From assembly GCA_041690595.1 (NCBI GenBank), contig JAWLHB010000006.1, positions 62,001 to 126,000 of the forward strand: a DNA stretch of 64,000 nt. The letters are read 5' to 3'. The stretch is from Lentisphaeria bacterium (lineage in GTDB: Bacteria; Verrucomicrobiota; Lentisphaeria; JABSQK01; JAWLHB01). The notes beneath the pieces were generated by a model that saw only the letters and a list, made by a program, of their open reading frames with translations, ran no database searches and was not told the DNA's origin. A program made the position numbers and the translations under genes. Positions 32,852-51,120 of the stretch are shown here, piece after piece; the stretch's first letter is position 1; each line of letters starts with the position of its first letter.

Positions 32852-32867
32852 ATCTGGTGAAATCCCT

Positions 32868-33752: not shown

Positions 33753-33768
33753 CGGCAGTGGAATCGCT

Positions 33769-34791: not shown

Positions 34792-34947
34792 GCGTCCTCC
34801 TCTGAAATATCGCCATTGGATTGCCACCTTCGGCGTAAAGTTCCACTCTCACCACCACGGGCAAGCCCATACCATACCAGCTTTTCGCCCATCCGCCAGT
34901 GCAACACACGCCCCGCGCAGCGAACGTCCTCTTCGTCCTTTCAGCAA

Positions 34948-36396
34948 TCAATCGCCATTGGTCTCGGGCCGCATGGTCAGCGCGCCGGTTGGGCAGATGG
35001 CGATGCAGGCGAGCGCCGTGGCGAGGCTGGCGCGGGCATTGCTACCACCGACAGTCGTGCGCATGCCGCGCCCCTGGATGCCGAGGTCGAGCGGTTCGCC
35101 GGCTTCCTGGGCCACCCGTACACATTGCCCGCACAGGATGCACTTGCCGGGCAGAAAGTACATGTGAGGCAGCGTGGTGCGGCGCTCATAGCGCGCATCG
35201 CTACTCCGCGGATGGCGCTGGCGAGCCTCATAGCGCGCCGACAGCACCCGCAACTGGCAGCTGGCCGCGACAGTGCAGTCACATTGCCCGCAGCGGCTGG
35301 CTTCGGCGCATGCCTGGGAAGCCGAAAGCGGCGCCTCGACCGAGGTGCTGGCCGGATTGCACCCTTTGATGAACTCCAGCATCTCTCCATCGTCGAGTCG
35401 CCGCAGCATGGACCGGAAAGCGACATCATGGGCACTCTGATCATGGGCCAACGAGCGGTGGACGATCATGGCGGCATCCAGACCGGCGGCAACCTGCTGC
35501 ACCAGCTTCCCGGCGGCACGTACCCGGACGATGGATTCCACCTCCGGTATGTCGTCCCGATCACCATCCGCGACGATGGTCATCGGTTGCGTGATCTCCT
35601 GCCACGAGAGGTCATGACCGACCGCCACGCCAAGCCGAACCTCCAGCCCCATGGCGACGACCCGCGCCAGCTCGGCAGCCAGGATGGCATGGGGCAGTTC
35701 CGCCTCGCCATACTGTACGCGCAGCGACTCGCCCAAGGCTTCAGCGGCGTCGTACAGGATGCAGCCATAGCCAAGCTGGAGCAGGCGCCAGGCGGCGGCC
35801 AGCCCGGCAGCACCAGAGCCAACCACCGCGATCGTCTCGTCAAAGCGTCGTTCAGACGGCGATGCCGCAACATCACGTTCAGCGGCAAAGTGTTCGATCG
35901 ACCGAATAGCCACCGGGTCATCGAGCGCGCCACGACGGCAGACTTTTTCGCACGGGGCATGGCAGACGCGGCCCAGGACCCCGGCCAGCGGCAGCTGAGC
36001 GCGCACCAGGGCTGCCGCTTCGTCCCAGCGCCGAGCGGCGCCGTGGCTCATCAACAGGGGGATATCGAGGCCGGCGGGGCAGGCGCGGCGGCACATGGCC
36101 ACGCATTCGCCGAGATGGTCACCAAGGAGATACTCGAGGGCTTTCCGGCGCATGGCGGCGACCTCATCGGTGTCGCTTTCCAGCGCCATGCCAGACTCGG
36201 CGCGAGCCGTGCAGGCGGGAAGGTAGCGTGGCGCGCCGGCAACCTTCACGGCGCAGACCATGCACGAACCGGAGGCGGCGCAGCCATCGATCCAGCAGAG
36301 CGTCGGGATGGAAATCCCCGCGCGGCTCGCGGCGCTGAGAATGGTCTCGCCGGCGGCGATCTCGATCGGGCGTCCATCGATGGTGAGGTTGGCCAT
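34948..36396 (-). CDS. Fe-S flavoprotein: NuoG/HydA N-terminal [2Fe-2S] + GltD-like Fe-S/FAD part + C-terminal ferredoxin (shortened StnC/SfrB-like)
   Basis: PTLC..GSCMVC..PAC, DHLGECVAMCRRACP, GRVCHAPCEKVCRR, VVGSGAAGLAAA, EASRCGQCDC..CQLR, KCILCGQC and CIAICPTGAL. Confidence 0.85.
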   Translation of the reverse strand: MANLTIDGRPIEIAAGETILSAASRAGISIPTLCWIDGCAASGSCMVCAVKVAGAPRYLPACTARAESGMALESDTDEVAAMRRKALEYLLGDHLGECVAMCRRACPAGLDIPLLMSHGAARRWDEAAALVRAQLPLAGVLGRVCHAPCEKVCRRGALDDPVAIRSIEHFAAERDVAASPSERRFDETIAVVGSGAAGLAAAWRLLQLGYGCILYDAAEALGESLRVQYGEAELPHAILAAELARVVAMGLEVRLGVAVGHDLSWQEITQPMTIVADGDRDDIPEVESIVRVRAAGKLVQQVAAGLDAAMIVHRSLAHDQSAHDVAFRSMLRRLDDGEMLEFIKGCNPASTSVEAPLSASQACAEASRCGQCDCTVAASCQLRVLSARYEARQRHPRSSDARYERRTTLPHMYFLPGKCILCGQCVRVAQEAGEPLDLGIQGRGMRTTVGGSNARASLATALACIAICPTGALTMRPETNGD

Positions 36397-38720
36397 CAGT
36401 GTACCTCCACGGCATCTTCGGGGCAGACCTGGCGACAGATGCCGCACCGGGTGCAGGCCTCCTGGTCGATCCGGTGAAGCTGATAGGGGGTCATGGCGAT
36501 GGCGTTGTCCGGACAATGCTGAGCACAGAGAGTGCAGCCAATGCAGCGATCATTGATGTGCAACGAGATCAGGGATCGGCAGACACCCGCTGGACAATGC
36601 CCCTGCAGGTGCGCGTCGTACTCGGCACGGAAGTGGCGCAGGGCGGTCGTGACTGGATTGGGGGCGGTCCGCCCCAAGCCGCAGAGGCTGCCGGCGCTCA
36701 CATCGGCGGCCATCTCCTCCAGGAGTTCCAGATCCCCCGGCTCTCCCCGCCCCTGGCACAGACCGTCGAGAATGTCCAGCATCCTCGCGGTGCCGACTCG
36801 GCAGAAGGTGCACTTGCCGCACGATTCCTGCTGGCAGAAGTCGAGGAAATAGCGGGCGATGCTGACCATGCAGTCGTCTTCGTCGAGCACGACCAAGCCG
36901 CCGGAGCCCATGATCGCGCCGATTCCGGTCAGAGACTCGTAGTCGATGGTGGCATCCGCCATGGATGCCGGCACGCAGCCGCCGGACGGGCCGCCAATCA
37001 GGACCGCCTTCAGGCGCTTGCCGTTGGGTACGCCGCCGCCGATCTCCTCGACAATCTGCCGAATCGTCACGCCCATGGGTACCTCGATCAGCCCCCCGCG
37101 CGCCACCTTTCCGGCAAGGGCGAAGACCTTGGTGCCGGTGCTTTGCGGAGTGCCCAGTCTGGCAAAGGCCGCCCCACCCTCCCGCAGAATCCACGGCACC
37201 ATGACGAAGGTTTCGACGTTGCTGATCAGCGTCGGAATCTCGTGCAAGCCGGCTTCGGCGGGATAGGGAGGGCGGAGGGTGGGAATGCCGCGCCGACCTT
37301 CCATCGAGGCAATCAGCGCGGTCTCTTCTCCACAGACAAAGGCGCCCGCGCCCTCGAAGACGCGGAGCTTCAGTCCCTCCCCGCCAAGCAACCCCACTTG
37401 TTCGCACCGGCGAATCGCTTCGCGCATGCGCTCGACCGCGAAAGGATACTCCGCTCGCACATAGACAAAGGCTTCGTTCGCTCCGACTGCCCGCGCCGCA
37501 ATGGCCATGCCCTCGATCACCCGGTACGGAAAGGATTCCATCAGCATCCGGTCCATGAAAGCCCCGGGATCCCCCTCGTCGCCATTGCAGACCACATAGC
37601 GCAGCCCCCCCGGCTGGGAACGCACCATCTCCCACTTGCGCGCGGTAGCAAAACCCGCCCCACCCCGACCGCGCAAGCCGCTCGCCCGAATCTCTTCGAT
37701 GATCGCCTCCGGCGTCAACTCGCCGCGGCACCGTTCGAGTGCCAGAAAGCCGCCGGCGCCCCGATAAGCCGCGAGGTCGAGCGGATCGCTGGCGCCGAAA
37801 TGCTCTGTCGCCACGTGCACCTGTGGGCCGAAGAAAGCGGCGACACCGGGCGCTTCGTCGGGCGAAGCATAGCGCTCGACCGGCTCACGTTCCTCCCAGC
37901 TCAGCAGGGTATCCAGCGCATCGGTCACTCCATTGCGCAGCCGATGGAGCAATCCAGCCGTCGGCAGGTGTTGCCGCAGGACACGGCCGATGTCCTCGTC
38001 GGGCAGCCCGGAGTAACGCACCGGCGCGCTCCCGGCGGGCGCCACTTCAAGCATTGGCGCGCGTTCGCACATCACGACGCAGGAGACGCGGCGCACACGC
38101 GCCAGGATGCCATTGTCGGTGATTGCCTTTTCGAGTGACTGCAGCGACTTGCCACAGCCTCGGGCGATGCAGCAGGAATCCATGCAGATACGGACTTCTC
38201 CGAGGTTGCCACGCGCTTCGGCCAGCTCCCAGGAGCCGCGATGCCCCTTGGCCTGCTGGTTGAAGTCGTCGATCATGCCGCCGATCGTGTCCGGTGCGAG
38301 GTGGCCATAGGTCAGGTCGTCGATCTGTACGGCGGGGGCGAGCGTGCAGCAGCCCAGACAGAAGACCTTCTGGACCGTAAAGCGGCCGCTCTCGTCCGTG
38401 TCCGCACCGGCGGCAATCCCAAGATGATGGCGGATGGCGTCGTAGACCGGGATCGAACCTTTGACGTGGCAGGCCGTTCCGTCGCAGACCTTGATGAGAT
38501 GTTTCCCCATCGGTTCAAAGCGGAAGATAGCGTAGAAGGAAGCGACACCGCGTATCTCGGCCTCGCCGATGCCGGTCAGGCGGCTGAGTCGATCCAAGGC
38601 GGCGGGGGGCAGATAATGCAGGTGCCGCTGAATGGTGAGCAGCAGCGGCAGCAATTGCGCGCGACCGGCGCCATGCAGGGAGACCGCCCGATCCACGAGG
38701 GAGATGTCGACGGCGCTCAT
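36396..38720 (-). CDS. NuoE-NuoF (HydC-HydB/BfuC-BfuB) fusion: FMN/NAD(H)-binding multi-Fe-S subunit
   Basis: CDGTACHVKG/CLGCC, a second thioredoxin-like 2Fe-2S (CMDSCC/CVVMC), SGLRGRGGAGF, NGDEGDPGAFMDR, GAFVCGEETAL, ESCGKCTFCR/SLCGLG, HLQGHCPAGVC and a C-terminal 2x[4Fe-4S]. Confidence 0.93.
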   Translation of the reverse strand: MSAVDISLVDRAVSLHGAGRAQLLPLLLTIQRHLHYLPPAALDRLSRLTGIGEAEIRGVASFYAIFRFEPMGKHLIKVCDGTACHVKGSIPVYDAIRHHLGIAAGADTDESGRFTVQKVFCLGCCTLAPAVQIDDLTYGHLAPDTIGGMIDDFNQQAKGHRGSWELAEARGNLGEVRICMDSCCIARGCGKSLQSLEKAITDNGILARVRRVSCVVMCERAPMLEVAPAGSAPVRYSGLPDEDIGRVLRQHLPTAGLLHRLRNGVTDALDTLLSWEEREPVERYASPDEAPGVAAFFGPQVHVATEHFGASDPLDLAAYRGAGGFLALERCRGELTPEAIIEEIRASGLRGRGGAGFATARKWEMVRSQPGGLRYVVCNGDEGDPGAFMDRMLMESFPYRVIEGMAIAARAVGANEAFVYVRAEYPFAVERMREAIRRCEQVGLLGGEGLKLRVFEGAGAFVCGEETALIASMEGRRGIPTLRPPYPAEAGLHEIPTLISNVETFVMVPWILREGGAAFARLGTPQSTGTKVFALAGKVARGGLIEVPMGVTIRQIVEEIGGGVPNGKRLKAVLIGGPSGGCVPASMADATIDYESLTGIGAIMGSGGLVVLDEDDCMVSIARYFLDFCQQESCGKCTFCRVGTARMLDILDGLCQGRGEPGDLELLEEMAADVSAGSLCGLGRTAPNPVTTALRHFRAEYDAHLQGHCPAGVCRSLISLHINDRCIGCTLCAQHCPDNAIAMTPYQLHRIDQEACTRCGICRQVCPEDAVEVH

Positions 38721-40411
38721 GGTGCCTCCTCCCTGAAGCAAAAGAGATGGTCGCTCCCCCGCACCAGGATGTTGCCTCCAGCCACCGCGATCGACGCATT
38801 GAGCGCCTCGCCCATGGGATTGCGGGCAAGCTCTTCGTAACCGTCTTTCATGGTGAAGACGACGAGATCGCCATCCTTCAGCGGCAGGTAGATGGCGTCG
38901 CCGACCATGGTGGGTGAAGCCCACGCGTCCCCCTCGAGATCATGCTCCCAGAGCAGCTCCCCATCGGCGGCATTCAGACAGGTCAGCATCCCGGCCATGC
39001 AGAGGAGCAGCCGTTCACCATCGCAGAGAGGACTGACGATGTCCGGCAATCCCAGGTCGTTCTTCCAGAGGATGTGGCTCTCCGTGAGATCCCCCTCGCC
39101 ATCTGGCCGGATGGCTGCCGCGTAGGCAAAGGCGGAAGCAACATAGACTAAGTCATTGGCAAAGACAGGGGCCGTGACGACCTCCCCATAGAAGAGGTTG
39201 ACCTTCCAGATCTCCGCCCCGTCCGTCGGATTGTTGGCGACGATCCACGGGCTGCCGGTGGAGACGATCTGGGGAGCACCCCCGCTCTCGATGATGATCG
39301 GCGTCGACCAGGTGTTCGGGGCCTCGCGGGGCGTCTTCCAGCGCACCTTGCCGCTCCCGGCGTCGAGCGCGTAGAGAAAGGAGGAACCGTCACCGTCCAT
39401 CCCCTGGTCGAACTGGACGATGACGAGGTCGTCCCAGAGGATCGGCGAGGCGGCGTGCCCATAGATGTTCACCGGCACGCCGAGGTTGGTTGCCCAGAGA
39501 GGCGCGCCCTGAAAAGAAAAGGCGGCGATATCGCCATTGGCGAACATGGCGACGACCCGCTTGCCGTCAGTCGCCGGCGTGGGGGCGGCATAGCCGGTGT
39601 CGGCGAGGACATTCTCCGGCATGGCGCGGGCGCCACCGATGACATTGGCCTGCCAGAGCAGCTTTCCATCCTCCAGGCTATAGGAATAGAGCTGGCGGGT
39701 GGAGCTGTTGGCACCGGTGACGAAGATCTGGTTGCCCCAGACGATCGGCGAACTCTGGCCGGTAAGAGGGATCTCGACTCGCCAAGCCAGCTTCTCGCCG
39801 GTACCCGGGTCGAAGCGTATGGGCGTGGATTGTCCGGTCGCGATGGCCAGGCCGCCCGGGCCGCGGAAGCGGGGCCACCGCAGCTCGACAGGCACCTCCA
39901 CGACAGGCGCATCGCCGGGCGGCGTGACGGCCAAGGCCGGGATGGTCAGATCAGGCCGTCTCGCCACACCGAAAGCGGCACCGAGCAGCATAGCGCCCAC
40001 GGCGGCAACTGCCCAGCGAGACTGGGAAGCCCGGCGAGCGACATCCGGTAGGGCATGCGCCGGCGGCAATGGCGTCGAAGCGCCCAGGCCGGCGGCCAGG
40101 CTGAGGCTGGCAATGATGACGACAGCTCCGGCCAGAAGGAGCCATGCCCCCTGCCTGGTGCGACGCTGGCGAGCGAAGTAGTCAACCCGCAGCTCGTGGT
40201 CGAGCTGCCGTATGCTCTCCTTCACCGCCTCGTCTTTCGGCGAATCAAGCAAGCTCTGGCGGAGGACGGCAAGCGCTTCCGCGTCGACCAGGCGAGTGGT
40301 GCGACCGCGGAAATTGTCCAGCACCAGAAAGGCGCCGACGATGACGCAGAAGATGATGGCGGCTCCGGCGGTGAGGCGCAGCGAGCGAATCCACTGGGGG
40401 CGCCCTTTCAT
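38717..40411 (-). CDS. Membrane-anchored PQQ-like (BamB-type) beta-propeller protein
   Basis: Three N-terminal TM helices, WPRFRGP, and repeated SSPIVWG/GKLLW/WSTP/ASPT blade motifs. Confidence 0.85.
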   Translation of the reverse strand: MKGRPQWIRSLRLTAGAAIIFCVIVGAFLVLDNFRGRTTRLVDAEALAVLRQSLLDSPKDEAVKESIRQLDHELRVDYFARQRRTRQGAWLLLAGAVVIIASLSLAAGLGASTPLPPAHALPDVARRASQSRWAVAAVGAMLLGAAFGVARRPDLTIPALAVTPPGDAPVVEVPVELRWPRFRGPGGLAIATGQSTPIRFDPGTGEKLAWRVEIPLTGQSSPIVWGNQIFVTGANSSTRQLYSYSLEDGKLLWQANVIGGARAMPENVLADTGYAAPTPATDGKRVVAMFANGDIAAFSFQGAPLWATNLGVPVNIYGHAASPILWDDLVIVQFDQGMDGDGSSFLYALDAGSGKVRWKTPREAPNTWSTPIIIESGGAPQIVSTGSPWIVANNPTDGAEIWKVNLFYGEVVTAPVFANDLVYVASAFAYAAAIRPDGEGDLTESHILWKNDLGLPDIVSPLCDGERLLLCMAGMLTCLNAADGELLWEHDLEGDAWASPTMVGDAIYLPLKDGDLVVFTMKDGYEELARNPMGEALNASIAVAGGNILVRGSDHLFCFREEAP

Positions 40412-41721
40412 GCGGTTACCTCCGTTTCCGGGCTCGCCGGGTTGCATGGCAAACCCCGTCGCTGCCGCTCATAGGGGCAGGTATCGAAACAGCGGGCGCA
40501 GGCGAGGCAGTGGGCGCGGTCGGCCTCGTAGTCTTCGCGCCAGTGACGCATGGCATGTTGAACGAGGGCAAGACCAATGACCAGCCCCAGAAAGCCGCCC
40601 AGCCACCAGCCCCCCTTTTCAAAGCCGTCGCGAATGGCGGTTGCCTCCTGGTAGAGGCGGTCCACCTGCCCGTCCTGTACGTAGAAAGCATCGACGGCAT
40701 CCGTGAGGGTCAGACTTTCATCTTCGGCCTGCATGCGCACCTGCTCGGCGAGCTGCACGCGAGGATGATACATGGACAAAGGATCAGCGATCCGGGAGCC
40801 GGCCCAGCCCAGCAGCACCACCAGCGCCGGCAACGCCAGCACCAGCCACCCGAGGCGCCGGCGCGCCTGTCGACGCGATTCGGCGGGACGTTCGGGCAGA
40901 GGCTGATGGATGGCGCCGAAAGGACAGGAATCTTCGCACAGCCGGCACTTGCTGCACTCGCTCGGCGTGATCCGCACAAACCATTTGCTGAAGCGCGAAC
41001 AGAGGCTCAGCAGCGCCCCCAGCGGACAGAGGAATCGACAATACGGGCGGCCAACGAACATGGAGAGGACCAGCAGGGCGACACCCACGGCGATCATGAT
41101 TCGCCCGCCGCTGAGGCGAAAGATGCCCACAAATGGATCGTAGCGGCAGATGACAAAGGCGCTTCCGGTGGCGGCAAGGAGGATGGCGGCTCCGAGATAG
41201 ATCCATGGCAGCAGGCGCAGGCCACTCTCCAGCCAATGGGGCACCTTCAGCGGCTTGATGAGCACGGCATCCTGCAGCGCGCCGTGCGGGCAGACCCCCG
41301 CGCAGAAGGATCGCCCCCAGAAGAGAGCGACAATCAAGGGCAGGAGGAAGAAGCCGAGCACCGTCCACGGCACGACATAGCCGGGCTGCCAGAGCCCAAG
41401 CGCCACGTTCTGAATCGAGCCGATCGCGCAGATGCAGCCGGCGCGATAGAAGCCGAAGTAGAGAAGGCTGCCGAGCATCAGAACGATGACCGCCTTGCGA
41501 GAGCGCCGTTTGTGGACCAGCCAGGTGGCCACCGCCAGCCCGATCGCCAGTAGCCCCAGGTCGACGATCTGCCACCAGTCGGCGCGGGCGCCGGGCGTCG
41601 AGGTCAGCGGCAGCTGATGGCCGGATTCGAAATCGGGGGGCGGAAAACGCTCGACAGCCGCCACCCAGGCAGCCGTTAATCCCATTGCCAACCCCGCACA
41701 CCTTCTCCCCCATACCTTCAT
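40408..41721 (-). CDS. Membrane polyferredoxin (NapH/MauN/NosR-C-terminal-like 4Fe-4S protein)
   Basis: Multiple TMs, CICAIG, FCAGVCPHGALQ, YCRFLCPLG, CSKCRLCEDSCP and CLACARCFDTCP. Confidence 0.88.
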   Translation of the reverse strand: MKVWGRRCAGLAMGLTAAWVAAVERFPPPDFESGHQLPLTSTPGARADWWQIVDLGLLAIGLAVATWLVHKRRSRKAVIVLMLGSLLYFGFYRAGCICAIGSIQNVALGLWQPGYVVPWTVLGFFLLPLIVALFWGRSFCAGVCPHGALQDAVLIKPLKVPHWLESGLRLLPWIYLGAAILLAATGSAFVICRYDPFVGIFRLSGGRIMIAVGVALLVLSMFVGRPYCRFLCPLGALLSLCSRFSKWFVRITPSECSKCRLCEDSCPFGAIHQPLPERPAESRRQARRRLGWLVLALPALVVLLGWAGSRIADPLSMYHPRVQLAEQVRMQAEDESLTLTDAVDAFYVQDGQVDRLYQEATAIRDGFEKGGWWLGGFLGLVIGLALVQHAMRHWREDYEADRAHCLACARCFDTCPYERQRRGLPCNPASPETEVTA

Positions 41722-42296
41722 GCCGGCTTTTCCCGTGTTTTGAGCAGGTAGGGATCGGAGGCGGGTACGCGGCTGAATGCTTCGGCTGGACATTGCACGG
41801 CGATGGAGCATTCATTGCAGTTGACGCAGCGGTCGTGACGCACTTGCAGGTAAAGCGAGCCATTGCCGAACATGGTGCAACCCTTGACGCACTTGCCGCA
41901 ACCGACGCAGAGTTCCTCGTCGATCGTATATTCGAAATACGGTTCCTCGACGAAGTGACGCTCGATGGCGCCGGTCGGGCAGAGCTGATTCTCGGCCCCC
42001 GTGTTGAGGGCATTCGGCTGCGGTTCGAAGTAGCCGGTGCAGAGGGCGCAGTAGCCGCACATGCTGTACGAGTGGACGCATTTCACGGCGGACTCCTCAA
42101 GGACGCAGGCCGTGGCGCAGTTGCCGCACTGGATGCACTTGCGTGGATCGAGCTGCCAGACGAGACCGTCGTTCCGACTGCGGCCATAGGCAAATCCCGC
42201 CAGGCTGCCGGCAGCGAGCAGCCCAAGGTTGCGCAAGCCACCCTTCAGGAATTCGCGGCGAGAGGCTTTCTCATCAGCTTTGCGGTCATCGCTCAT
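41718..42296 (-). CDS. Tat-signal multi-[4Fe-4S] ferredoxin (NapG/MauM/NapF-like)
   Basis: SRREFLK plus a hydrophobic stretch, then CIQCGNCATAC, CGYCALC..CP, CVGCGKCVKGC and CVNCNEC..CP. Confidence 0.88.
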   Translation of the reverse strand: MSDDRKADEKASRREFLKGGLRNLGLLAAGSLAGFAYGRSRNDGLVWQLDPRKCIQCGNCATACVLEESAVKCVHSYSMCGYCALCTGYFEPQPNALNTGAENQLCPTGAIERHFVEEPYFEYTIDEELCVGCGKCVKGCTMFGNGSLYLQVRHDRCVNCNECSIAVQCPAEAFSRVPASDPYLLKTREKPA

Positions 42297-43348
42297 GCGG
42301 TGATCTCCTCCATGACTCGGATGCGGCGGGTGACGATATCGAGGATGTGGATGCGCCCATCCGGCGCGACCGCCACATCGAGACCACCACGCGTACAGGT
42401 CGAGGCGTCACCTCCGGCACAGGCTGCTTCGTTCTCGGGGAAGAGCGCCGGGGGTGCCACGACGGATTCGAAGGTCCCATCGGCCGCATGAATCTTCACG
42501 CGCGGAAGCCCCTTTTCGCAGGTCACGAAACGACCATCCGGCAGGATGGTGAAGTTGACCGGATTGCAGCAACCGCAGAAGCCATCGATCGCCATAGAGG
42601 TTGTCCCCCAGGAGAATTCCAAGTCGCCACGGAAGGTATAGGCTTCGACGCGATGCCGGCCGGGATTGACTACCCGCAGGAGACCGTCGGGGGCGATGCG
42701 CAGGGCAAAGAAGGGACTTGGAACCACGAAGCCGGGTATACCGCGCTCCTCGTCTCTCGCGCCAATGGGGCCGATCAACTTGCCAGAGCGATCGTGGTGC
42801 CAGACCATGCGATTGGCGGCGTCGGCGGCAAAGACATCATCATCGATCAGGTCGACGCTGGTGAGGTGAGCGCCCTCGATGGGGGCAAAGGCCAGACGCA
42901 GGGTGCCATCGGGCGAATAGAGTTCGAGGTGATCGCGAACGCCGACCAACAGCTCGTCGCCCCGCCAGCTCAGGCCACGCGGCAAGCCGGCAGTCTCCAT
43001 ATCGAGCCGGATCGCCCCATCAGGAGAGAGGAGCCGCACCCGCTTTTCGCCGGCCACGGCAATCGTCCCATCAGGACCGATGGCGATACTGCGAACCGCG
43101 CGCAATTGCGGATCGAGTTCAGCGACCTGACGATAGCGAATCAACTCTTCGGGTACGTGACGAAAGCGCTCCACATCGTAGAAGAATTCATCGCCAAGCT
43201 TACGTCTGGCGGAGGGGGATACGGGTGCCGAGGGACCACGCCAGAGGCGCGACATCCAGGCCGTGCCGCCGGCCAGAGCAGCGAGGGCGCCCCCGGCGAG
43301 GGCCTTGCCCAGGAAGTGGCGGCGACTGCTCTTCACGGGTTCGCTCAT
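42293..43348 (-). CDS. Tat-signal NHL/six-bladed beta-propeller protein with a Cys-rich loop
   Basis: SSRRHFLG Tat motif, NHL-like blades (IAIGPDG, IAPDG, VAVAPDGRIHILD) and the motif GFCGCCNP. Confidence 0.8.
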   Translation of the reverse strand: MSEPVKSSRRHFLGKALAGGALAALAGGTAWMSRLWRGPSAPVSPSARRKLGDEFFYDVERFRHVPEELIRYRQVAELDPQLRAVRSIAIGPDGTIAVAGEKRVRLLSPDGAIRLDMETAGLPRGLSWRGDELLVGVRDHLELYSPDGTLRLAFAPIEGAHLTSVDLIDDDVFAADAANRMVWHHDRSGKLIGPIGARDEERGIPGFVVPSPFFALRIAPDGLLRVVNPGRHRVEAYTFRGDLEFSWGTTSMAIDGFCGCCNPVNFTILPDGRFVTCEKGLPRVKIHAADGTFESVVAPPALFPENEAACAGGDASTCTRGGLDVAVAPDGRIHILDIVTRRIRVMEEITA

Positions 43349-43566
43349 CGGGTGCCTCCACGCCGGAAGGCCGTGGCCTCCGGCAGTTTGCAGCGGTCGT
43401 TTTCGATGCAGGTGAAGCAGCGGCTGTCGTTCACGCAACGATCGCCCAGACGACGGGCAACAAGGAGCCCCCCGGTCGCCGCCAGTGCCCCAATCAACAC
43501 CCGCCGCCCGCAGGTGCGAATGAAGTCGCGTCGTGTCTGATTTTCCTGCCACGGATCCTGATTCAT
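43345..43566 (-). CDS. Small (73 aa) Tat-like, four-Cys protein
   Basis: MNQDPWQENQTRRDFIR, a hydrophobic helix, then CVNDSRCFTCIENDRC. It has 4-bp ATGA overlaps with both neighbours. Confidence 0.72.
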   Translation of the reverse strand: MNQDPWQENQTRRDFIRTCGRRVLIGALAATGGLLVARRLGDRCVNDSRCFTCIENDRCKLPEATAFRRGGTR

Positions 43567-44978
43567 GGCGAAGCTCCTCCCTCTTTCCCCACGTCGAGTG
43601 AAACCATACGGGTTAAGTCGCGAAGAATCAACCGTCTGCCCGCCAGCGCCATGGGCCCCCACGCTTCATGACCATCGAGCACCTGTGCGTCGCCCAGCGG
43701 GCGAAAACCATCCGGCACGGCTTCCACCATGACCAGGCGACCATGATCGTCAAGCGCATAGATCAGCCTATCGGCGATCATGCAGGGGCCCAGACCGAAG
43801 CGATAATCGATGCCACTCTCCCAGAGGATCTTGCCGGAAAGATCAAGGCAGACAAGCTCGCCATTAGGACGGATCCCATAGAGGTGCCCCTGATAGTAGA
43901 CGGGGGTCTGCTGCGTGGCGCCAAACACCTTCGGAGGAAGGCGAAAGTCGATGCGAGGGACGATGCTCTCGCCTTCTTCGATCAGCTGCAGCATGGCGCT
44001 CCCGGCATTGTATCCACCCGAGAGGAAGAGCCTGCCGTCGCCGACGACCACTGGCGAGGCAATGGTCGCGATGCTGATCTTCCATTCGTCCGTCATCCAG
44101 AGAATGTCACCGCTGTCGACATCGATCCCGGCGAGGCCGCCACTGGCATTGTAGGCGACCATGCGGCGCTTAGCGAAGGTAAAAGGGGTCAGGGATGCAT
44201 GCGTCATCTGCCATGCCTTGGGGTTGGGGCTCTTCCAGCGAAGCTCGCCGGTCGCCAGATCGACGGCAATGGCCAGAGTCTCTTCGCCGCCGACGCCAAG
44301 CAGGACAACATCATCGAGAACGAGCGGGCACTGGCCCGCATACCAGGGCGGCACGACCGTGCCATACTCGCGCACCAGATCGATCCCCCAGCGAAATTCG
44401 CCCGTGAGCGCATCGGCGCAGATCACCTGGCACATCGGCCCCATCGCCACGACATGGTCACCCGCGAGAGTGGGTATGGTGCGCGACATGCCATGGTTGC
44501 GCTTGATCTTGATCGGGTAGGTCAGCCGCCAGAGCTCGCTGCCATCCTGCAGGGAGAGGCAGCGCAGGGCATCCTCCTGGCGCTCGCGGTCGTAGTCCAT
44601 GATGTAGACGCGGCCATCGCGGACGGCGGCGCCGGCATACCCTTCCCCCACCTCGATGCTCCAGAGTTGCGGAGGGCCGCCGGCCGGCCATTGGCGGGCC
44701 AGGGGGGGCGCATCGACCGCGACCATGCTCAGCTCTGCTCCGCGAAAGCCCGGCCATGCACCAGGCAGCTCGACGACCCTGCCATCACCCGGTCGCAAGG
44801 CGATATCGCCCAGCGGGTCGGCAGCTTCGGCCTCTTCCATGCCGGCGGGCCGGTCTCGTCCCGGAACTCGCGGCTCCAGGAGGCGTGCCGTCGGCCCCTG
44901 AATCCACAGCCATAGCATGGCGCTTCCAGTCAGAGCCGTAACGGCGGGTAGCAGACGTTCGATCATGGTAAGGCTCAT
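43563..44978 (-). CDS. Membrane-anchored PQQ-like beta-propeller protein
   Basis: N-terminal TM, WPGFRG, PPQLWSIEVGEGYAG and repeated GELRW/GDILW/GKILW blades. Confidence 0.85.
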   Translation of the reverse strand: MSLTMIERLLPAVTALTGSAMLWLWIQGPTARLLEPRVPGRDRPAGMEEAEAADPLGDIALRPGDGRVVELPGAWPGFRGAELSMVAVDAPPLARQWPAGGPPQLWSIEVGEGYAGAAVRDGRVYIMDYDRERQEDALRCLSLQDGSELWRLTYPIKIKRNHGMSRTIPTLAGDHVVAMGPMCQVICADALTGEFRWGIDLVREYGTVVPPWYAGQCPLVLDDVVLLGVGGEETLAIAVDLATGELRWKSPNPKAWQMTHASLTPFTFAKRRMVAYNASGGLAGIDVDSGDILWMTDEWKISIATIASPVVVGDGRLFLSGGYNAGSAMLQLIEEGESIVPRIDFRLPPKVFGATQQTPVYYQGHLYGIRPNGELVCLDLSGKILWESGIDYRFGLGPCMIADRLIYALDDHGRLVMVEAVPDGFRPLGDAQVLDGHEAWGPMALAGRRLILRDLTRMVSLDVGKEGGASP

Positions 44979-45027
44979 CCGTGGTCACGCAGCGCATGCC
45001 CACTCGGTATGATGTTCATCCCCTTCA

Positions 45028-48000
45028 TCATTCCCTGCGTAAGGCAGACAGAAGATCGCCTCGCAGGGCGAAGACTGCCGCCAGTATTATCCATAAGATT
45101 CCACTGATTCCCAGAAGTGCCATCAGAAGGGCCAGCAAATGCCATGGTACGCCGGGGCCTGAGCGCATCAGGAGGGGCATCACCGCGGCCGCCGCGGCAA
45201 TCGCGCCAACCGTGAGACCCGCCGCATAGAGGGCAAGGTGCTCCACGATCAGCAGACGACTCAACCAGCCTCGCGGATAGCCCACAGCCCGCATCAGGGC
45301 AAGCTCGGGTCGGCGCTCCAGCACATGATTCACCACCAGCAGCCCAAGCCCAACGCTGCCCAGCAGCAGACCGAGACCGCCCAGCACCTGGAAGATGCTG
45401 ATGTAGGTGTTCTGTACCCGGTCGTATTCCGCCAGCACCTCGCTGGAAGGACGGAAATCGACGCCATGCTCCGCCAGTGCCCGATTGAGCGTCTCGGCCA
45501 GCAGCGCCGCATCTTCATAGCGGCTGTCGACCATCAGGATAGCATAGCCGGAGCTGCTCGGGAAGTGCTGGAGATAGGCCTCTTCGTCGACTATCAGCAT
45601 GCCGCGCAGGAGATTGCTGTCGAGGGCGCCGGCGATGCGGATGCCGAGTTCGCGCCCCTGCTCGTCCGTGTATCCATGGATGATGTCGCCGACGGCACGC
45701 CCCATGGTGTAGGTGAGGCTATTGAGATCGGTGAAGGCGTTGATCACCCGCGGCTCGGGCGTCTGGCGCAGCGCGCTCCATGGCTCCGTCGGATCGACAT
45801 CGGGGGCCAGCTTGAGGAAGGTGAAGGCCCGGCGCGCCTGCATGGTACGGCTGTCCAGCGCTGCCAGGCGGGGACGCTGCGCGCGGTTGAGATTGAGGCA
45901 GCTTGCCTCGTCACCGGCGCGCAGGCGGAGCTGAAGCACGCTGAAGGGCGGAATCCGCGGATCGCCGATGAGCCCCAGATCTTCGCGGGCACCATAGGTG
46001 TTGAGGTCGACATGCAGAGGAAGGGTGGCCTGAGCGAAGAGGGAGAAGCCGCCGGTGCCGCCGCTGGGGGCGAGGTTCTCCGGCTGGCGGTGAAGCCGCT
46101 GGGATTCGAGGGCCAGAACGAGGAAGGCGCCGCAGCCCAGAATAGCGGCCACCGCGAGACTTCGGCCGCGGTGGCGGGAGAGATTGCGCAGCCCCAGACG
46201 CGTGAGGCCGGGTGCGTCGCTCCCACCAAGGCGCGCCAGGCGATAAAGCAGGTCGTTGAAGGCCGACAGGGCGCCGACCAGCAGGAGCGTTCCCGCCAGA
46301 AAGAAGACCAGCGGCTGGTCAAGCTCCAGGATCGCGCCGAAGACGATGATGGCGATGCCGAGCAGAAGCAGAGTAAAGCCGAGAAAGGACCAGATGGGGC
46401 GGCGGGGGCGATGACCGACGGTGGATTCTGCGTCGCGACCACCGGCAAGCAGCACCGGTACCGGCCACCGGGCGATGAGGCGACCGGAATACCAGATGGT
46501 GGCGACCGCAACGATGAAGGTGGCGACGGCACCGCCGGCCAGCGAGGTGATGGTGGCGGAGAACTGGATCGGCCAGGTTCCGACGGCATCTTGCCAGACG
46601 TGTGTCAAGCCATGGAGGATGGCCATGGTGTAGCCGATGCCCAGGCAGGCACCGATGATGACCGCCGGTACTGCCAGAGCCGCGCTCTCCGCGATGTAGA
46701 AGAGGCGAACCCGGCGCCGGCTGAAGCCGAGGGCCACCAGCGTCCCCACTTCCGTGAGGCGCCGCTTCAGGCTGAAATTAAAGAGGAGGCCGGTGAGCAG
46801 CAGCGCGGCGATGATCAGGAAGATACTGAAGGCCAGGAAGTACTGGCTGAAGTCCAGGCTGTTCCGGTAGGCCTCGGTGCTCAGTTCCGCGATCGGCACC
46901 GGCACGAAGCCGACGGCCGCCGGATCCCCCAGGAGAACGTCCCGCAGCTGCTCGTCGACCTCTGGCGTCGCGGGAAGTCGTACAGCGGTGACGGCGCCGA
47001 AGCGGCTCCGCCAGAGGCGTTGGCCGGCCGACAGACTGATGAGCGCCTTGGGGGTGCCGCGGTACTCGCCCCAATAGGCTTCGTCACGGGGACGAATCCG
47101 CGCCAGCTCGATCGGCACACCCGTATCCCACGAGCGACAGTTTTCGGCGTCGCTCAGCCCCGGAAAGTCGGGCATCATGGCCGCATCGAGGCGCGGGTCG
47201 TCCATGGGAATGATCTGACGAATGACGAAGTCGGCGGAGTCGACGATAAGACGGTTCCCGGCGTCCAGCAGGAAGTACTCGATGGTGACGGTGTCGCCGA
47301 CAGCAGCTTCCAGATCTTCGGCAGCCCACTGGTTGAGCACCATCCCATCGTCTCCCAGCTCCGCCCACTGGTCGGTGGCGGTGACCATGCTGTAAGGAGT
47401 CACCCGCTCGCCGAGCCGAAGGGAATTGACGAACCAGGTGAGAAGCGATACGGAATCCGGCGAAAGCGCGGCGGCGCCGGCGGCAAGCGAATCGCGCATG
47501 AAGATCTGAGAGCTGCGTAGCTCCACGGTCTCGCCGTCTGGCAGTGACTGCACGGCAAAGCCGGCATCTTCAAGCTCCAGTAGCTTCGGAAGCGCTTCGT
47601 TTATCTTCCCGATAGTGCTCGCGCCACCCACGAGCAGCAGGTTGGCGCGGCCCGCACGGCCAAGCTCGGCCGCCAACTGGTCACGTGGGATGAAGAGATT
47701 GTAGGGGGCAACCTGATTGAGTTCCAGGTTGAAGTTGCCGAAGCTCTCCGCGCCGCGAATCTCACCCACGGTGGCGCGCCAACTGACGAAGGCGTCGTCG
47801 GCTGGACTCAGGGAGGCATCGCGCGGCAGTAGCCCGGGATTTGCAACCCGCAGTACAATGGCATCGCCGATCTCCACCCCGAGGCGCTCCGCCAGGCGAC
47901 GATTGAGGACGATCCCGCTGGCTGGAGGCGCATCGCCGAGGCTCCAGAACTCGGGGTCTACCCCCAGTATGCGCACCCGGTTGACGCGGCGCGATTCGTC

Positions 48001-48291
48001 CGGCAGGAGCACCATCCCATCGAGTTGGATGGCGGCAGCGAGCGGCACATCGAGCTGGTCGCGCAAGCGGTCATCCAGAGCGACGGTGAAGAAACGGTCG
48101 CCGGTAAGGATGGAGACGCTCACCTGGCGCAGCCGCTCATCGGCGATGCGGCGCAAGCTCGCCCGGACGGAATCGCCCACCAGCAGCGCGCCAGTGATCA
48201 CGGCACAGGCGACCGCGACTCCCGCCATGGTGCCGAGATACCCGCGCCAATGGTAGAGAGCGCTGCCGCGCACGAGGTTCAGCAGCTTCAT
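45028..48291 (-). CDS. Large FtsX/MacB-family ABC permease with two FtsX domains
   Basis: AVITGALLVGDS N-terminal TM, two FtsX motifs (RRLTEVGTLVALGF and ERRPELALMRAVG) and large periplasmic domains. Confidence 0.9.
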   Translation of the reverse strand: MKLLNLVRGSALYHWRGYLGTMAGVAVACAVITGALLVGDSVRASLRRIADERLRQVSVSILTGDRFFTVALDDRLRDQLDVPLAAAIQLDGMVLLPDESRRVNRVRILGVDPEFWSLGDAPPASGIVLNRRLAERLGVEIGDAIVLRVANPGLLPRDASLSPADDAFVSWRATVGEIRGAESFGNFNLELNQVAPYNLFIPRDQLAAELGRAGRANLLLVGGASTIGKINEALPKLLELEDAGFAVQSLPDGETVELRSSQIFMRDSLAAGAAALSPDSVSLLTWFVNSLRLGERVTPYSMVTATDQWAELGDDGMVLNQWAAEDLEAAVGDTVTIEYFLLDAGNRLIVDSADFVIRQIIPMDDPRLDAAMMPDFPGLSDAENCRSWDTGVPIELARIRPRDEAYWGEYRGTPKALISLSAGQRLWRSRFGAVTAVRLPATPEVDEQLRDVLLGDPAAVGFVPVPIAELSTEAYRNSLDFSQYFLAFSIFLIIAALLLTGLLFNFSLKRRLTEVGTLVALGFSRRRVRLFYIAESAALAVPAVIIGACLGIGYTMAILHGLTHVWQDAVGTWPIQFSATITSLAGGAVATFIVAVATIWYSGRLIARWPVPVLLAGGRDAESTVGHRPRRPIWSFLGFTLLLLGIAIIVFGAILELDQPLVFFLAGTLLLVGALSAFNDLLYRLARLGGSDAPGLTRLGLRNLSRHRGRSLAVAAILGCGAFLVLALESQRLHRQPENLAPSGGTGGFSLFAQATLPLHVDLNTYGAREDLGLIGDPRIPPFSVLQLRLRAGDEASCLNLNRAQRPRLAALDSRTMQARRAFTFLKLAPDVDPTEPWSALRQTPEPRVINAFTDLNSLTYTMGRAVGDIIHGYTDEQGRELGIRIAGALDSNLLRGMLIVDEEAYLQHFPSSSGYAILMVDSRYEDAALLAETLNRALAEHGVDFRPSSEVLAEYDRVQNTYISIFQVLGGLGLLLGSVGLGLLVVNHVLERRPELALMRAVGYPRGWLSRLLIVEHLALYAAGLTVGAIAAAAAVMPLLMRSGPGVPWHLLALLMALLGISGILWIILAAVFALRGDLLSALRRE

Positions 48292-49019
48292 CGCTTCCTC
48301 CTGCCCGCCTCCCTCAACCTCCCTTCACGCAAGGTGAGCAGACGGGGCATCCGACCGGCAATATCCGCGGCATGGGTCACCAGCACCAAGGCAACTCCCA
48401 GCGCCTTGTTAAACTCGATCAGAAGGTCGATCAAGGATTTGGCGGATTTCTGATCGAGCGAACCGGTCGGTTCATCGGCCAGAAGGAGCCGCGGCTGGTT
48501 GATAAGCGCACGTACGACGGCGACCCGCTGTCGCTCGCCGCCGGAGAGCTGGCCGGGGCGATGGGCGAGGCGCTCCTCCAGTCCCACCCGCGCCAGCAGC
48601 TCGCGAGCACGCGCGGTCGCCTGGGAACCGCGCAGAGGGGCATCGGGGGCGAGCGTCGGCACGAGGACGTTCTCCAGCACGGAGCATTGCGGAAGGAGGT
48701 GGTGCTCCTGAAAGATGAAGCCGATCTCGCGGTTGCGCAGGCGCGCCAGCTCGCGGTCGCTCAGTGCCTGGAGAGGCCGCTGATCAAATATTACCTCCCC
48801 CTCATCGGGCTGATCCAGCGCGCCGATGAGATTGAGCAGGGTGCTCTTGCCGCAGCCGCTGGGCCCCATGATCGCCACGGCGGCGCCCGGTTGAAGCAGG
48901 AAATCGATGCCCTCGAGGACGGTACCCGGCGCACCGTTGGCCGCCATGCCGGGATACCGTCGCGTGACGCCGCGAAGGAGGACGAGAGGGCTCTCTGCAT
49001 CGCGCGTCGTGTCACTCAT
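48288..49019 (-). CDS. ABC transporter ATPase (LolD/MacB-like)
   Basis: [36 protein letters not shown] and VTH. Confidence 0.96.
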
Positions 49020-49444
49020 GGAAGAAACCTGGGATCGGAGGTGATGTCGGCGGTCGGGAGTTCACAGGCATCCCCGCCTGGAATGCGGTGGCGATGGCGC
49101 GCGATGACCCGATAGCCCCAGTTGCGTAGTGGCGCGGGAATGAGACGCAGCATCCGCCCAACCAGACGCCAGCGCCCGCCGACGTCGACGAGCATTCGCC
49201 AGACCGCATCGGAATGAAGATAGGCCGTTTCCTTCGTCTCGTCAAAATCCCGCAGATAGATGACGCTATTCAGGGAAGGGTCGAGATCCGTGTACCGGTC
49301 GAAGACAGCTTGGGCCGTTTCCCCCTGCAGAGGCGCGAAGCGGAGAAGGCGATCGTGGTCGATACGAAGGAGGAAGCGGACGCTGCGATTGCACAATCCG
49401 CATCCTCCGTCGTAAAGGACGAGGCCCCTGTAGCGAGTCGCCAT
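49016..49444 (-). CDS. DCC family thiol-disulfide oxidoreductase (DUF393/YuxK-like)
   Basis: LYDGGCGLC (DxxCxxC), FAPLQG, LRNWGYRVIARHR and a C-terminal C..RFL. Confidence 0.92.
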   Translation of the reverse strand: MATRYRGLVLYDGGCGLCNRSVRFLLRIDHDRLLRFAPLQGETAQAVFDRYTDLDPSLNSVIYLRDFDETKETAYLHSDAVWRMLVDVGGRWRLVGRMLRLIPAPLRNWGYRVIARHRHRIPGGDACELPTADITSDPRFLP

Positions 49445-49458
49445 GGCACACTCCGATT

Positions 49459-50292
49459 TCAGCCGAGAGAGGACTTGCTGCGCGTGCGCTGCAACTCGTT
49501 CTTAGGGATGCGGCGCTCGATGAAGTCGGAAGAGATGTAGATGCACTCGCGGGCTTCGTCGCAGGTCGTGGTGCCGATGCAGACCATGTCCTGGTCGCGA
49601 ATGGTATTCCAGACGAAGGAGAAACCAACCGGTGGCAGGAGCTTGCCGGCAGCCAGAGGCTTGATGGTGAGGACGGGATGCTTGGCCTCCCGGATGATCC
49701 GCATGACCCAATCCGCCTCAACCTGCATGAGGAAGCCGGCGGCGTTGTAGATCTGGATGTAGGTGGCGATGTCCGCCTCCATTCGATCGGCATAGACGAT
49801 GGCTTCGGGCATGTGCGTGGAGAGGCCGGGTATCATGCCGTAGTCGCGGATCAGGCGGGTATAGAGTTCGAGATCCCGAATCGTCTGCGAACGACGATCG
49901 ATGAGCGCATCGATGACGGCCTGGTGCGGCAGGCAGAAGGTTCCGTTGAGCTCCTTGCACTGGCGGATCGCCGCCTCGGCGGTCACCATCGGATCCCCTT
50001 GCGGATCGACGTTGAAGATGGGGGTCCACATGCGGATGATCGCCTTGCCCGTCTTATCTTCAGCCTGGAGGATGGCATCTTCCAGCTTCTGGTTGGGCGG
50101 TGCCAGAATGGCATCGATGCCATGCTCGAGAAAGGTCTCGATGATGGCGCAGATGCGCTCGCGTGTCTGGAACTCCTTAATGAAGTTGTCCTTGGCCAGA
50201 CTCGTGTGGGAATAGCCGAGAAACCAGTTGGAGCCGATGATCAGGCGCGGCAGGCTGACGCCGCCGACGATGGTGCGTGGAAAGTCCGTCAC
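49459..50292 (-). CDS. Aldo/keto-reductase-like TIM-barrel protein of unknown function
   Basis: PRLIIGSNWFLGYSH, GMIPGLSTH and TIKPLAAGKL resemble the AKR fold. GTG start. Confidence 0.65.
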   Translation of the reverse strand: MTDFPRTIVGGVSLPRLIIGSNWFLGYSHTSLAKDNFIKEFQTRERICAIIETFLEHGIDAILAPPNQKLEDAILQAEDKTGKAIIRMWTPIFNVDPQGDPMVTAEAAIRQCKELNGTFCLPHQAVIDALIDRRSQTIRDLELYTRLIRDYGMIPGLSTHMPEAIVYADRMEADIATYIQIYNAAGFLMQVEADWVMRIIREAKHPVLTIKPLAAGKLLPPVGFSFVWNTIRDQDMVCIGTTTCDEARECIYISSDFIERRIPKNELQRTRSKSSLG

Positions 50293-50319: not shown

Positions 50320-51120
50320 TCAGCGTTCAACGTCATGCAGCTCCCCGCCTCGCTCTTTTGACAAGTCGGCGCCGGCAAAGTTGCCTTCGTCTGGAATAAT
50401 CAGCATGGCGCGCGGGGTGGAATCGATCTTGAGGGTGCCGCTCTCGATGTTCAGATCGAGCAAGTGCCCACCCACCTTCCGCTCATCGTCAAGAAAGTGC
50501 AGATGATAGCCCGGCACATTCAGCCGCGCCATGAAGGGGGGGCAGCGAAAGCCGACCAGCACACCCGAGATCTCGCTGTAGTTGAACTCCGGCTGTTCCC
50601 TGGCAATCTCCACGAGGGGACGATACGGCTTCTCCTGCGCCGGCACGCTGCGCGTGCGGATCGACGCAAATCTGCCGGTGATCTCGATGGCCTGAATCAT
50701 GTTCTGATTCGGCGCCTGTCTGTCGATGAAGGCGTACAATTCCTCAAGCGAAAGAGGTCCGGGTATGGCGACCTGCTGGTCAGCGCCAAAGAAGGTAACG
50801 GCGGCAAAGGGAGTGGTGGTGGAAAGGGGTGGGAGATAGACCTTGCCGTCAGCCCGCACCTGGTAGACGGTGCCCTGGTGGACGACCATTTCGCCATCGA
50901 GGCGATCGAAGGTGCCGATGCCGAAATCACCATATTCGCGAAGCTCCGTGAGAGCGATGTGACCACCGTACACGCCGCCGAGCAGCGCTTCGATCGTCGA
51001 CGTCTGCATCAGCAGTTCCTTGTCGCGGCCACCGCCGGTGCGGCAACCGGAGATTAACAACATTGCCATCAACGGCAGCGACAACGTGAAGAGCGCGCTC
51101 GATCTGGGCATGGCAGCCAC
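50320..51120 (-). CDS. budA: Alpha-acetolactate decarboxylase with a lipoprotein signal
   Basis: QTSTIEALLGGVY, GDFGIGTFDRLDGEM, PFAAVTFF and GYHLHF..GGHLLD (Zn ligands). Lipobox LISGC. Confidence 0.93.
   Translation of the reverse strand: MAAMPRSSALFTLSLPLMAMLLISGCRTGGGRDKELLMQTSTIEALLGGVYGGHIALTELREYGDFGIGTFDRLDGEMVVHQGTVYQVRADGKVYLPPLSTTTPFAAVTFFGADQQVAIPGPLSLEELYAFIDRQAPNQNMIQAIEITGRFASIRTRSVPAQEKPYRPLVEIAREQPEFNYSEISGVLVGFRCPPFMARLNVPGYHLHFLDDERKVGGHLLDLNIESGTLKIDSTPRAMLIIPDEGNFAGADLSKERGGELHDVER

Follow-up and report, generated by a model that had tools for sequence, protein, structure and literature searches.

A gene cluster conserved across bacterial phyla sets a bifurcating-type flavoprotein beside a NapH-like membrane protein and periplasmic propellers

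Introduction

Verrucomicrobiota and Planctomycetota are abundant in soils, sediments and waters, and bifurcating (Bfu) enzymes are central in anaerobic energy metabolism. What would such an enzyme do if its genes lay in one row with those of a membrane polyferredoxin and of exported propeller proteins? The question is raised by twelve genes, here called g01 to g12, that occupy positions 34948-50292, all on the minus strand, of a stretch of 64,000 nucleotides from a Lentisphaeria bacterium of the phylum Verrucomicrobiota (GenBank assembly GCA_041690595.1, contig JAWLHB010000006.1, positions 62,001 to 126,000 of the forward strand); this whole stretch is referred to below as the window. In Bfu enzymes electron bifurcation couples nicotinamide adenine dinucleotide [NAD(H)], ferredoxin and a third substrate (PMC9304861). 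An original prediction, made from the letters of this DNA, had read all twelve genes as one redox operon that links a bifurcating-type NAD(H) module in the cytoplasm to exported iron-sulfur proteins, propellers and an ABC system, forming an electron conduit across the envelope.

The analysis reported here narrows this picture and makes it more specific. The conserved unit is g05-g12, accompanied in part of the family by the ABC pair g03-g04, and the cluster joins known modules in an arrangement for which no description was found, its terminal enzyme being uncharacterised. We consider it just on the probable side that the unit encodes a membrane-linked Bfu-type enzyme, which would pass electrons from NADH, and perhaps from ferredoxin, to a periplasmic thiol-based propeller enzyme.

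Conservation of the cluster

The cluster was followed through other genomes by way of g07 (42293-43348, minus strand), which encodes an NHL propeller. A scan of one genome per species for this NHL gene gave 598 pattern matches, 578 of them encoding a relative. The comparative counts rest on the best 80 of these 578 loci, which were searched by tblastn with all 12 window proteins and with two flanking genes; a gene was scored only where the contig had room for it, the thresholds for room being our own choice. Downstream of the NHL gene and on its strand, the ferredoxin gene g08 is present in 73 of 75 loci with room, the NapH-like gene g09 in 65 of 66, the propeller gene g10 (prop2) in 53 of 56, the NuoEF gene g11 in 46 of 52 and the NuoG-like gene g12 in 40 of 46. 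Upstream lie the propeller gene g05 (prop1; 58/70), the FtsX permease gene g04 (27/54) and, on the same strand, the ABC ATPase gene g03 (25/51). Acetolactate decarboxylase, g01, the DCC gene g02 and MoxR were each found in 0 of the 80 loci, anywhere in the locus.

Loci from at least three phyla repeat, on a single strand, the order that runs from prop1 to the NuoG-like gene, their proteins being 30-65% identical; the loci that keep this core order are titled Verrucomicrobiota, Planctomycetota and Latescibacterota. Because of this recurrence, the arrangement is not a product of chance. An accidental or genome-specific order without functional meaning would have in its favour that g01 and g02 are specific to this genome; for g05-g12 it is refuted by a core order present in most of the 80 loci and in several phyla, so that we give it practically no credit. 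The original prediction had staked itself on co-occurrence of the genes in other genomes, and among the best 80 loci they do co-occur. Its twelve-gene unit was too wide: g01 (the aldo-keto reductase-fold gene) and g02, found in none of the related loci, are local additions, and the ABC pair is present in only about half of the loci with room.

The layout of the twelve genes in the window was borne out in full. All 12 open reading frames lie on the minus strand at the positions given, and all 11 junctions, computed with the start codons of the original prediction, agree on re-measurement: neighbouring genes share 4 bp (ATGA) at eight of them and 1 bp at another (36396), and the remaining two are gaps, of 14 bp between g01 and g02 and of 49 bp between g04 and g05. 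ATG is the start codon of every gene but g01, which has GTG; TGA is the stop codon of all 12, and GGAGG-like sites precede 7 of the 12 starts; a scan for promoters and terminators gave counts no higher than in shuffled sequence. The domain labels proposed earlier were mostly confirmed by Pfam and NCBIfam, those of g07 and g01 by fold only. The genome of the window (8.1 Mb, 97% complete) holds a single copy of the system. No RNA run was listed as containing this DNA, and four sediment DNA runs from one study were listed with small shares of 0.10-0.11.

Relatives of g07 are numerous: of 8000 candidates scored, more than 2800 are homologues with E values of at most 0.001, all of them unnamed or labelled "NHL repeat", and at least 578 species genomes carry the gene. 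In samples scored for an NHL match with an E threshold of 1e-30, the gene occurs in 23 of 301 genomes of the window's own phylum (about 8%), in 0 of 2 genomes of its order, and in 43 of 301 genomes (14%) of Planctomycetota, the phylum of a Phycisphaerales metagenome-assembled genome. A tree of 64 NHL sequences, built by a quick method while the careful search was unfinished, splits a mostly-Verrucomicrobiota group from a mostly-Planctomycetota group and puts the window on a long branch beside one locus (L002) and two Akkermansiaceae-type loci. By title its rows comprise Planctomycetota (38), Verrucomicrobiota (18), Latescibacterota (2), Actinomycetota (2) and two other phyla with one each; those from the rarest phyla may be binning errors. 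One locus is titled Methylacidiphilum; its genus group consists of two genomes, one of them with the gene, and offers no tie to any studied strain.

Some loci depart from the common layout. Both Latescibacterota loci and one Planctomycetota locus carry the NHL gene as tandem duplicates (L019, 5294-7441; L041, 4796-6798; L063, 10001-11947), and in a locus from Verrucomicrobiae (L032, 8329-8715) genes for a PemK/MazF-type toxin and for a malectin-domain protein are inserted between the prop1 and mini-protein genes. Three Planctomycetota matches flagged as having one TGA inside had suggested selenocysteine; this lead was dropped, as translation shows the TGA to be the terminal stop.

The cytoplasmic Bfu-type module

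By definition, BfuB combines a 51-kDa domain for flavin mononucleotide (FMN) and NADH with SLBB, Nuo51 [4Fe-4S] and 4Fe-4S ferredoxin-type domains, BfuC is a NuoE-like thioredoxin-type [2Fe-2S] protein, and BfuA has at least one 2Fe-2S and one 4Fe-4S ferredoxin-type domain (PMC9304861). The product of g11 (36396-38720, minus strand; 774 aa) is a fusion of BfuC and BfuB, NuoE-like at one end and NuoF-like beyond it. It consists of a NuoE-like domain, a second thioredoxin-like [2Fe-2S] domain, the NuoF FMN/NADH domain and a C-terminal pair of [4Fe-4S] clusters, and it matches PF01257 (in two stretches), PF01512, PF10589 and PF14697. The PF01257 match at residues 15-153 (151.7 bits) corresponds to BfuC, fused here to BfuB instead of forming a separate chain, and PF01512 (153.6 bits), PF10589 (108.2 bits) and PF14697 (42.3 bits) to BfuB. 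PMC9304861 defines the two subunits by InterPro domains, and the Pfam counterparts of these are all represented in g11. Residues 176-773 of g11 align to residues 7-594 of NfnB (9n5u_B) at E 4.5e-184, and the solved NfnB, StnB and HydB chains match over nearly their full length (E 1e-184 to 1e-170). The whole-chain match to NfnB supports a complete BfuB domain set.

The product of g12 (34948-36396, minus strand; 482 aa) is a truncated BfuA of the NfnA/StnA type, with Fer2_4, Fer4_20, the start of a Rossmann fold and Fer4_Nqo3. Its PF13510 (62.3 bits) and PF22117 (33.1 bits) matches supply what the BfuA definition asks for. In an alignment to StnA (8oh5_C) its residues 3-266 fall on 5-272 and its residues 293-474 on 483-672, so that only residues 266-293 stand in the place of StnA residues 273-482. 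Missing are thus about 210 residues, which form the NADP(H) part of NfnA and StnA (that for the phosphorylated dinucleotide), and everything beyond about residue 677, the pterin-like domain. A GxGxxG motif and D216 are conserved in 36 orthologues of g12; a second GxGxxG motif is not conserved among them.

Domain content and the best solved relatives therefore both uphold the earlier assignment of the cytoplasmic module to the bifurcating type. Judged by its domains, the module could not be a transhydrogenase, since the NADP(H) domain is missing from g12, and its third substrate would have to be found elsewhere.

Membrane and exported iron-sulfur proteins

The membrane protein g09 (40408-41721, minus strand; 437 aa; PF12801 and TIGR02163) has seven hydrophobic segments, two CX3CP motifs at residues 140-145 and 228-233, and two ferredoxin motifs (CxxCxxCxxxCP) at residues 256-267 and 405-416. 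These positions (C140/C144-P, C228/C232-P, C256-C266-P and C405-C415-P) are kept at 93% or more in 54 sequences, and a CxC at residues 96-98 and an N-terminal RFPPPxF motif are conserved as well. Like g09, NapH and MauN are membrane proteins that carry a pair of CX3CP motifs and, at the C-terminal side, a pair of [4Fe-4S] motifs; the scores of g09 stay below the family cut-offs, at 56.9 bits against 213.05 for NapH/MauN (TIGR02163) and at 46.1 against 234 for the NapH equivalog (NF007013). The hydrophobic segments put all four cluster motifs on the same side of the membrane, which by a simple topology count would be the cytoplasmic one.

The neighbouring g08 (41718-42296, minus strand; 192 aa) is a NapG-like ferredoxin with Fer4-family domains and an SRREFL motif, predicted to be exported by the twin-arginine translocation (Tat) route. 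It has 17 cysteines, enough for four [4Fe-4S] clusters, all of them conserved at 93% or more in 41 orthologues. Its score against NapG (NF007012, 25.1 bits) lies far below the cut-off of 269, and NapA is not present either.

The mini-protein g06 (43345-43566, minus strand; 73 aa) bears a Tat signal with a TRRDFI motif and four cysteines spaced Cx5Cx2Cx5C. A small frame with the pattern Cx(3-8)CxxCx(3-8)C adjoins the NHL gene in 66 of the 80 loci, in each of these 66 with a twin-arginine (RR) motif upstream; under a stricter Cys4 pattern such a frame lies upstream of the NHL gene in 23 loci and downstream of it in 35. All four cysteines are invariant in the 28 copies aligned. RR motifs occur in g06, g07 and g08, and those parts that appear to be consistently of the Tat-exported type are the ferredoxin and the mini-protein. 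A complex prediction for residues 58-351 of g07 with residues 30-73 of g06, with alignments as input and without control runs, scored 0.01, which speaks neither for nor against contact.

The propellers and the cysteine pair

Three proteins of the unit are propellers. Both g05 (prop1; 43563-44978, minus strand; 471 aa) and g10 (prop2; 38717-40411, minus strand; 564 aa) match PQQ_2 (PF13360), and BamB-type models match the propellers; g10 begins with three hydrophobic segments. The third, g07 (351 aa), combines a Tat signal with a GFCGCCNP motif. Pfam gives no match for the protein itself (PF01436 is absent at E 0.01 or better), and PF01436 is precomputed on many of its relatives. Its AlphaFold model (pLDDT 86.6) has the six-bladed NHL fold, and the top Foldseek matches are the NHL domains of TRIM2, Thin, TRIM71 and Brat (E 7e-18 to 1e-13, TMt 0.73-0.82).

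Within the NHL family C260 is invariant (66/66 sequences), as are E278 and K279 (66/66 each), and C261 is nearly so (64/66); only one histidine, H232, is well conserved (56/66). We argue from this alignment that the constant feature of the protein would be its adjacent cysteines and not a four-cysteine cluster. A four-cysteine [4Fe-4S] site was considered as a general rule and given up, with C258 kept in 59 and C277 in 50 of the 66 sequences, RR in 25, and fused forms of Sec type. A NosZ-like reading of the propeller was likewise abandoned, there being no set of conserved histidines.

Natural fusions of prop1 with the NHL protein exist: six longer proteins (P0121-P0126) join an orthologue of each, among them P0124, which shares 49% identity with g05 and 34% with g07 and retains the GFCGCCNP motif. 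Because five of these six proteins are closely related, they were counted as one event. Since such fusions exist, we argue that the two propellers are likely to work as a pair. In the 857-aa fusion P0126 a hydrophobic segment stands between the propellers and only the CC pair is kept (AECCNP); the topology as written would put the propellers on opposite sides of the membrane, and two genes may have been read as one. In another locus (L085; G427:C257:11770-12723) the NHL orthologue has a lipobox-like N-terminus (…GIGC…) in place of RR. The export route of the NHL protein thus appears to vary by lineage, the mini-protein being always of the RR type.

The original prediction had noted that hydrogenase, molybdopterin, heme-c and nitrous-oxide-reductase (NosZ) genes are absent, and the Pfam scan and a motif check, in which none of 14 proteins had CxxCH, gave the same result.

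The accompanying ABC pair

The ATPase g03 (48288-49019, minus strand; 243 aa; PF00005) is LolD-like, its best NCBIfam match being LolD itself (TIGR02211) at 247.6 bits, below the cut-off of 307.75. The permease g04 (45028-48291, minus strand; 1087 aa) is of a duplicated FtsX/MacB type with PF02687 in two stretches, PF12704 and nine hydrophobic segments; its relatives in the loci share 33-43% identity, mostly over the full length. Together the two genes hold the domains of a MacB-type (type VII) ABC system. A GT4 glycosyltransferase gene precedes the ABC genes in 18 loci of Planctomycetota type. In L040 (1784-4357 and 19631-20860), and likewise in 18 loci, a Beta-prop_ACSF4/PQQ_2 propeller and the GT4 protein are encoded ahead of the ABC genes, and in the same Planctomycetota-type loci another PQQ_2 propeller follows the NuoG-like gene.

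A proposed mechanism and its alternatives

How could these parts work together? We favour a single membrane-linked machine in which electrons run outwards. The BfuC-BfuB core of g11 would bind NAD(H) at its FMN in the cytoplasm and, by analogy with Bfu enzymes, would exchange electrons with ferredoxin too. Having retained the iron-sulfur chain and a flavin adenine dinucleotide (FAD)-type fold and lost the NADP(H) domain, g12 would hand electrons to the cytoplasmic iron-sulfur motifs of g09, and not to a soluble third substrate. From g09 they would cross the membrane to the exported four-cluster ferredoxin g08, which would deliver them to a periplasmic assembly of the NHL propeller g07, the mini-protein g06 and the anchored propellers g05 and g10. 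The proposed terminal redox protein is g07, and its adjacent cysteine pair would be the likely working site, acting as a redox-active dithiol/disulfide or as a metal site and reducing a periplasmic or envelope substrate.

The reading as one machine is drawn from the one-strand order conserved across phyla together with the eight ATGA overlaps in the window; we infer from the sequences that there is a single complex, which path and direction its electrons take, whether it bifurcates or confurcates, and what chemistry occurs at the cysteine pair. A third membrane-bound Bfu type is plausible, because PMC9304861 predicts two such types and leaves 17 BfuB clades without an assigned function or third substrate. 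In its full form the proposal is of a third class of membrane-linked Bfu enzyme, in which NADH and ferredoxin are coupled to a periplasmic reaction by an iron-sulfur-only route without heme or quinone, ending at a new two-propeller enzyme with an adjacent-Cys active site that is served by a Tat-exported four-cysteine mini-subunit; so detailed a version is put forward tentatively, as a possibility that may well prove wrong.

Several observations weigh against this reading and set bounds on it. NuoEF is missing from 6 of 52 and the NuoG-like gene from 6 of 46 loci with room, and the SLBB match of g11 (PF10531, 25.2 bits) remains below the 27-bit cut-off. No catalytic domain of known chemistry is found among the cluster proteins. 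NapH proteins are usually seen as quinol-fed, so that g09 need not take the electrons of g11-g12. At the proposed end point C258 and C277 are less constant (59/66 and 50/66), the RR motif is found in only 25 of the 66 NHL sequences, one sequence having a lipobox-like motif, and the prop1-NHL fusions start with a non-RR hydrophobic segment or anchor. Given an RR motif in so few sequences and the non-RR anchor of the fused forms, the NHL propeller probably lacks a cofactor inserted in the cytoplasm. The spread of the system is patchy as well, and with only 23 and 43 of 301 genomes carrying the gene in the two samples its function is accessory and not core.

Electrons might instead run inwards. 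A low-potential periplasmic donor would then be oxidised at the propellers, and electrons would pass through g08 and g09 to a Bfu core that bifurcates them to NAD+ and ferredoxin. Bfu enzymes are reversible, the third substrate being the donor in several of them (PMC9304861), and no sequence feature of the cluster sets the direction. Yet no oxidising centre is encoded, be it hydrogenase, formate dehydrogenase, carbon monoxide dehydrogenase or heme. A cysteine pair, moreover, is a feature more usual in reductases, and we regard the inward direction as unlikely. Slightly less credible still is a role in envelope biogenesis or maintenance. A component such as a lipoprotein, glycan or lipid would then be handled by the MacB-type ABC pair and the BamB-like propellers, joined in Planctomycetota loci by the GT4 glycosyltransferase, and the redox module would do no more than keep a thiol or cofactor in the periplasm in its reduced form. 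The ABC and FtsX genes upstream in 25-27 of 51-54 loci with room, the GT4 gene ahead of them in 18 loci and the BamB-type matches of the propellers would all fit such a role; but the ABC pair and GT4 are absent from about half of the loci, mostly Verrucomicrobiota-titled ones, in which the redox core is retained, and a seven-protein iron-sulfur chain with a Bfu core would be a heavy cost for upkeep.

The cluster might also hold two neighbouring enzymes, namely a quinol-fed NapGH-like system (g05-g10) in the periplasm and, independent of it, a soluble Bfu enzyme (g11-g12) whose third substrate lies in the cytoplasm. Proteins of the NapH type have been described as quinol dehydrogenases (PMC8238504), and the absence of NuoEF downstream in the 6 of 52 loci mentioned above would suit a division of this kind. 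However, the two parts stay together across phyla (NuoEF in 46 of 52 loci, the NuoG-like gene in 40 of 46), the window shows an overlap of 4 bp at the g10/g11 junction and of 1 bp at the g11/g12 junction, and g12 is without the sole substrate-binding domain of its solved relatives, leaving no evident soluble third substrate, which makes two separate enzymes distinctly improbable. The reading that we retain is that of an outward, membrane-linked Bfu-type enzyme ending at the NHL propeller.

Local and flanking genes

Two genes at the upstream end of the row are peculiar to this genome. The fold of g01 (49459-50292, minus strand; 277 aa) is a (beta/alpha)8 barrel, modelled at pLDDT 93.2, whose best Foldseek matches are aldo-keto reductases (TMq 0.66, 15% identity); it has no Pfam or NCBIfam match, and its protein-atlas clusters are all labelled "hypothetical protein". 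The catalytic tetrad of aldo-keto reductases is Asp-Tyr-Lys-His, and no invariant Tyr occurs among the conserved columns of 18 relatives of g01. The label "AKR-like" (from aldo-keto reductase) given to it in the original prediction thus stands for the fold and fails for the sequence family. Its neighbour g02 (49016-49444, minus strand; 142 aa) is a DCC1-like thiol-disulfide oxidoreductase (PF04134, E 1.6e-23) that overlaps g03 by 4 bp; the role in maturation once suggested for it is without comparative backing, the gene being found in 0 of the 80 related loci.

Upstream of g01, at a distance of 27 bp, an alpha-acetolactate decarboxylase is encoded at window positions 50320-51120 (minus strand; PF03306, 258.9 bits); its N-terminal hydrophobic segment, followed shortly by a Cys, suggests an exported or lipid-anchored form. 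On the other side, 120 bp downstream of g12, a MoxR-DUF58-DUF4381-VWA-VWA-BatD/TPR operon of the Bat aerotolerance type occupies positions 25930-34827 (minus strand), an adjacency specific to this genome since MoxR is found in none of the 80 related loci. Farther away, at 59001-61016 on the plus strand, lies a gene for a DUF4914 protein (1029.5 bits across the full model).

Comparison with known systems

No published description of the cluster was found, in a search that lay outside the supplements of PMC9304861 and PMC8238504, which could list members among unassigned clades; in this respect the literature agrees with the original prediction, which knew of no characterised system of such composition. 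If the proposed mechanism is true, this would be the first bifurcating-type flavoprotein to feed a periplasmic reaction without heme or quinone, and a previously unknown respiratory or energy-conserving outlet for Verrucomicrobiota, Planctomycetota and their neighbours. The comparative data give a minimal gene set (g05-g12), a testable active-site pair (C260/C261) and fusions that point to a prop1-NHL pairing.

The cytoplasmic module resembles most closely the NfnABC and StnABC enzymes (PDB 9n5u, 9bov and 8oh5). As given above, g11 corresponds to NfnB/StnB over nearly its full length at E about 1e-184, and g12 matches NfnA/StnA at the N-terminal [2Fe-2S], in the GltD-type part with its iron-sulfur and FAD, and at the NuoG-like clusters. 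The differences lie in the BfuC equivalent, present here but fused to BfuB, in the NADP(H) stretch (StnA 273-482) and the C-terminal pterin-like domain, both absent from g12, and in the genes for membrane and periplasmic partners that always flank g11-g12, which Nfn and Stn are without.

As for the NapGH, NosGH and MauMN pairs, they share with the cluster the adjacent genes for a Tat-exported four-cluster ferredoxin (g08) and a membrane polyferredoxin (g09). The differences are that in g09 two further hydrophobic segments separate the ferredoxin motifs, that no gene for NapA, NosZ or methylamine dehydrogenase is present here, and that the proposed donor is a Bfu flavoprotein and not quinol. 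Components of the nos cluster (NosZ with its seven-His CuZ site, NosD, NosF, NosY and NosL) gave no Pfam or NCBIfam match in the 12 proteins and the flanks. The ABC pair shares with MacB- and LolCDE-type systems a LolD-like ATPase and an FtsX permease with a MacB periplasmic core domain, but its permease is duplicated within one 1087-aa chain and tied to a redox cluster.

NapH-like proteins are common as routes through the membrane. Flavinylated NapH-like systems, too, use a NapH-like protein as a modular membrane route to varied periplasmic enzymes, mostly of unknown reaction, and are defined by an ApbE or FMN-binding partner (PMC8238504); by Pfam, the 12 proteins have no FMN_bind or ApbE domain. 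In the Mbh-Bfu and Nuo-Bfu systems, as here, BfuABC is encoded within a cluster together with membrane subunits, and the whole is read as one enzyme, the membrane part being a proton-pumping module of complex I or Mbh type and the third substrate quinone or H+ (PMC9304861). In the present cluster, by contrast, the membrane part is NapH-like and the proposed end point is a set of periplasmic propellers, so that it joins Bfu enzymes with NapH-like membrane routes.

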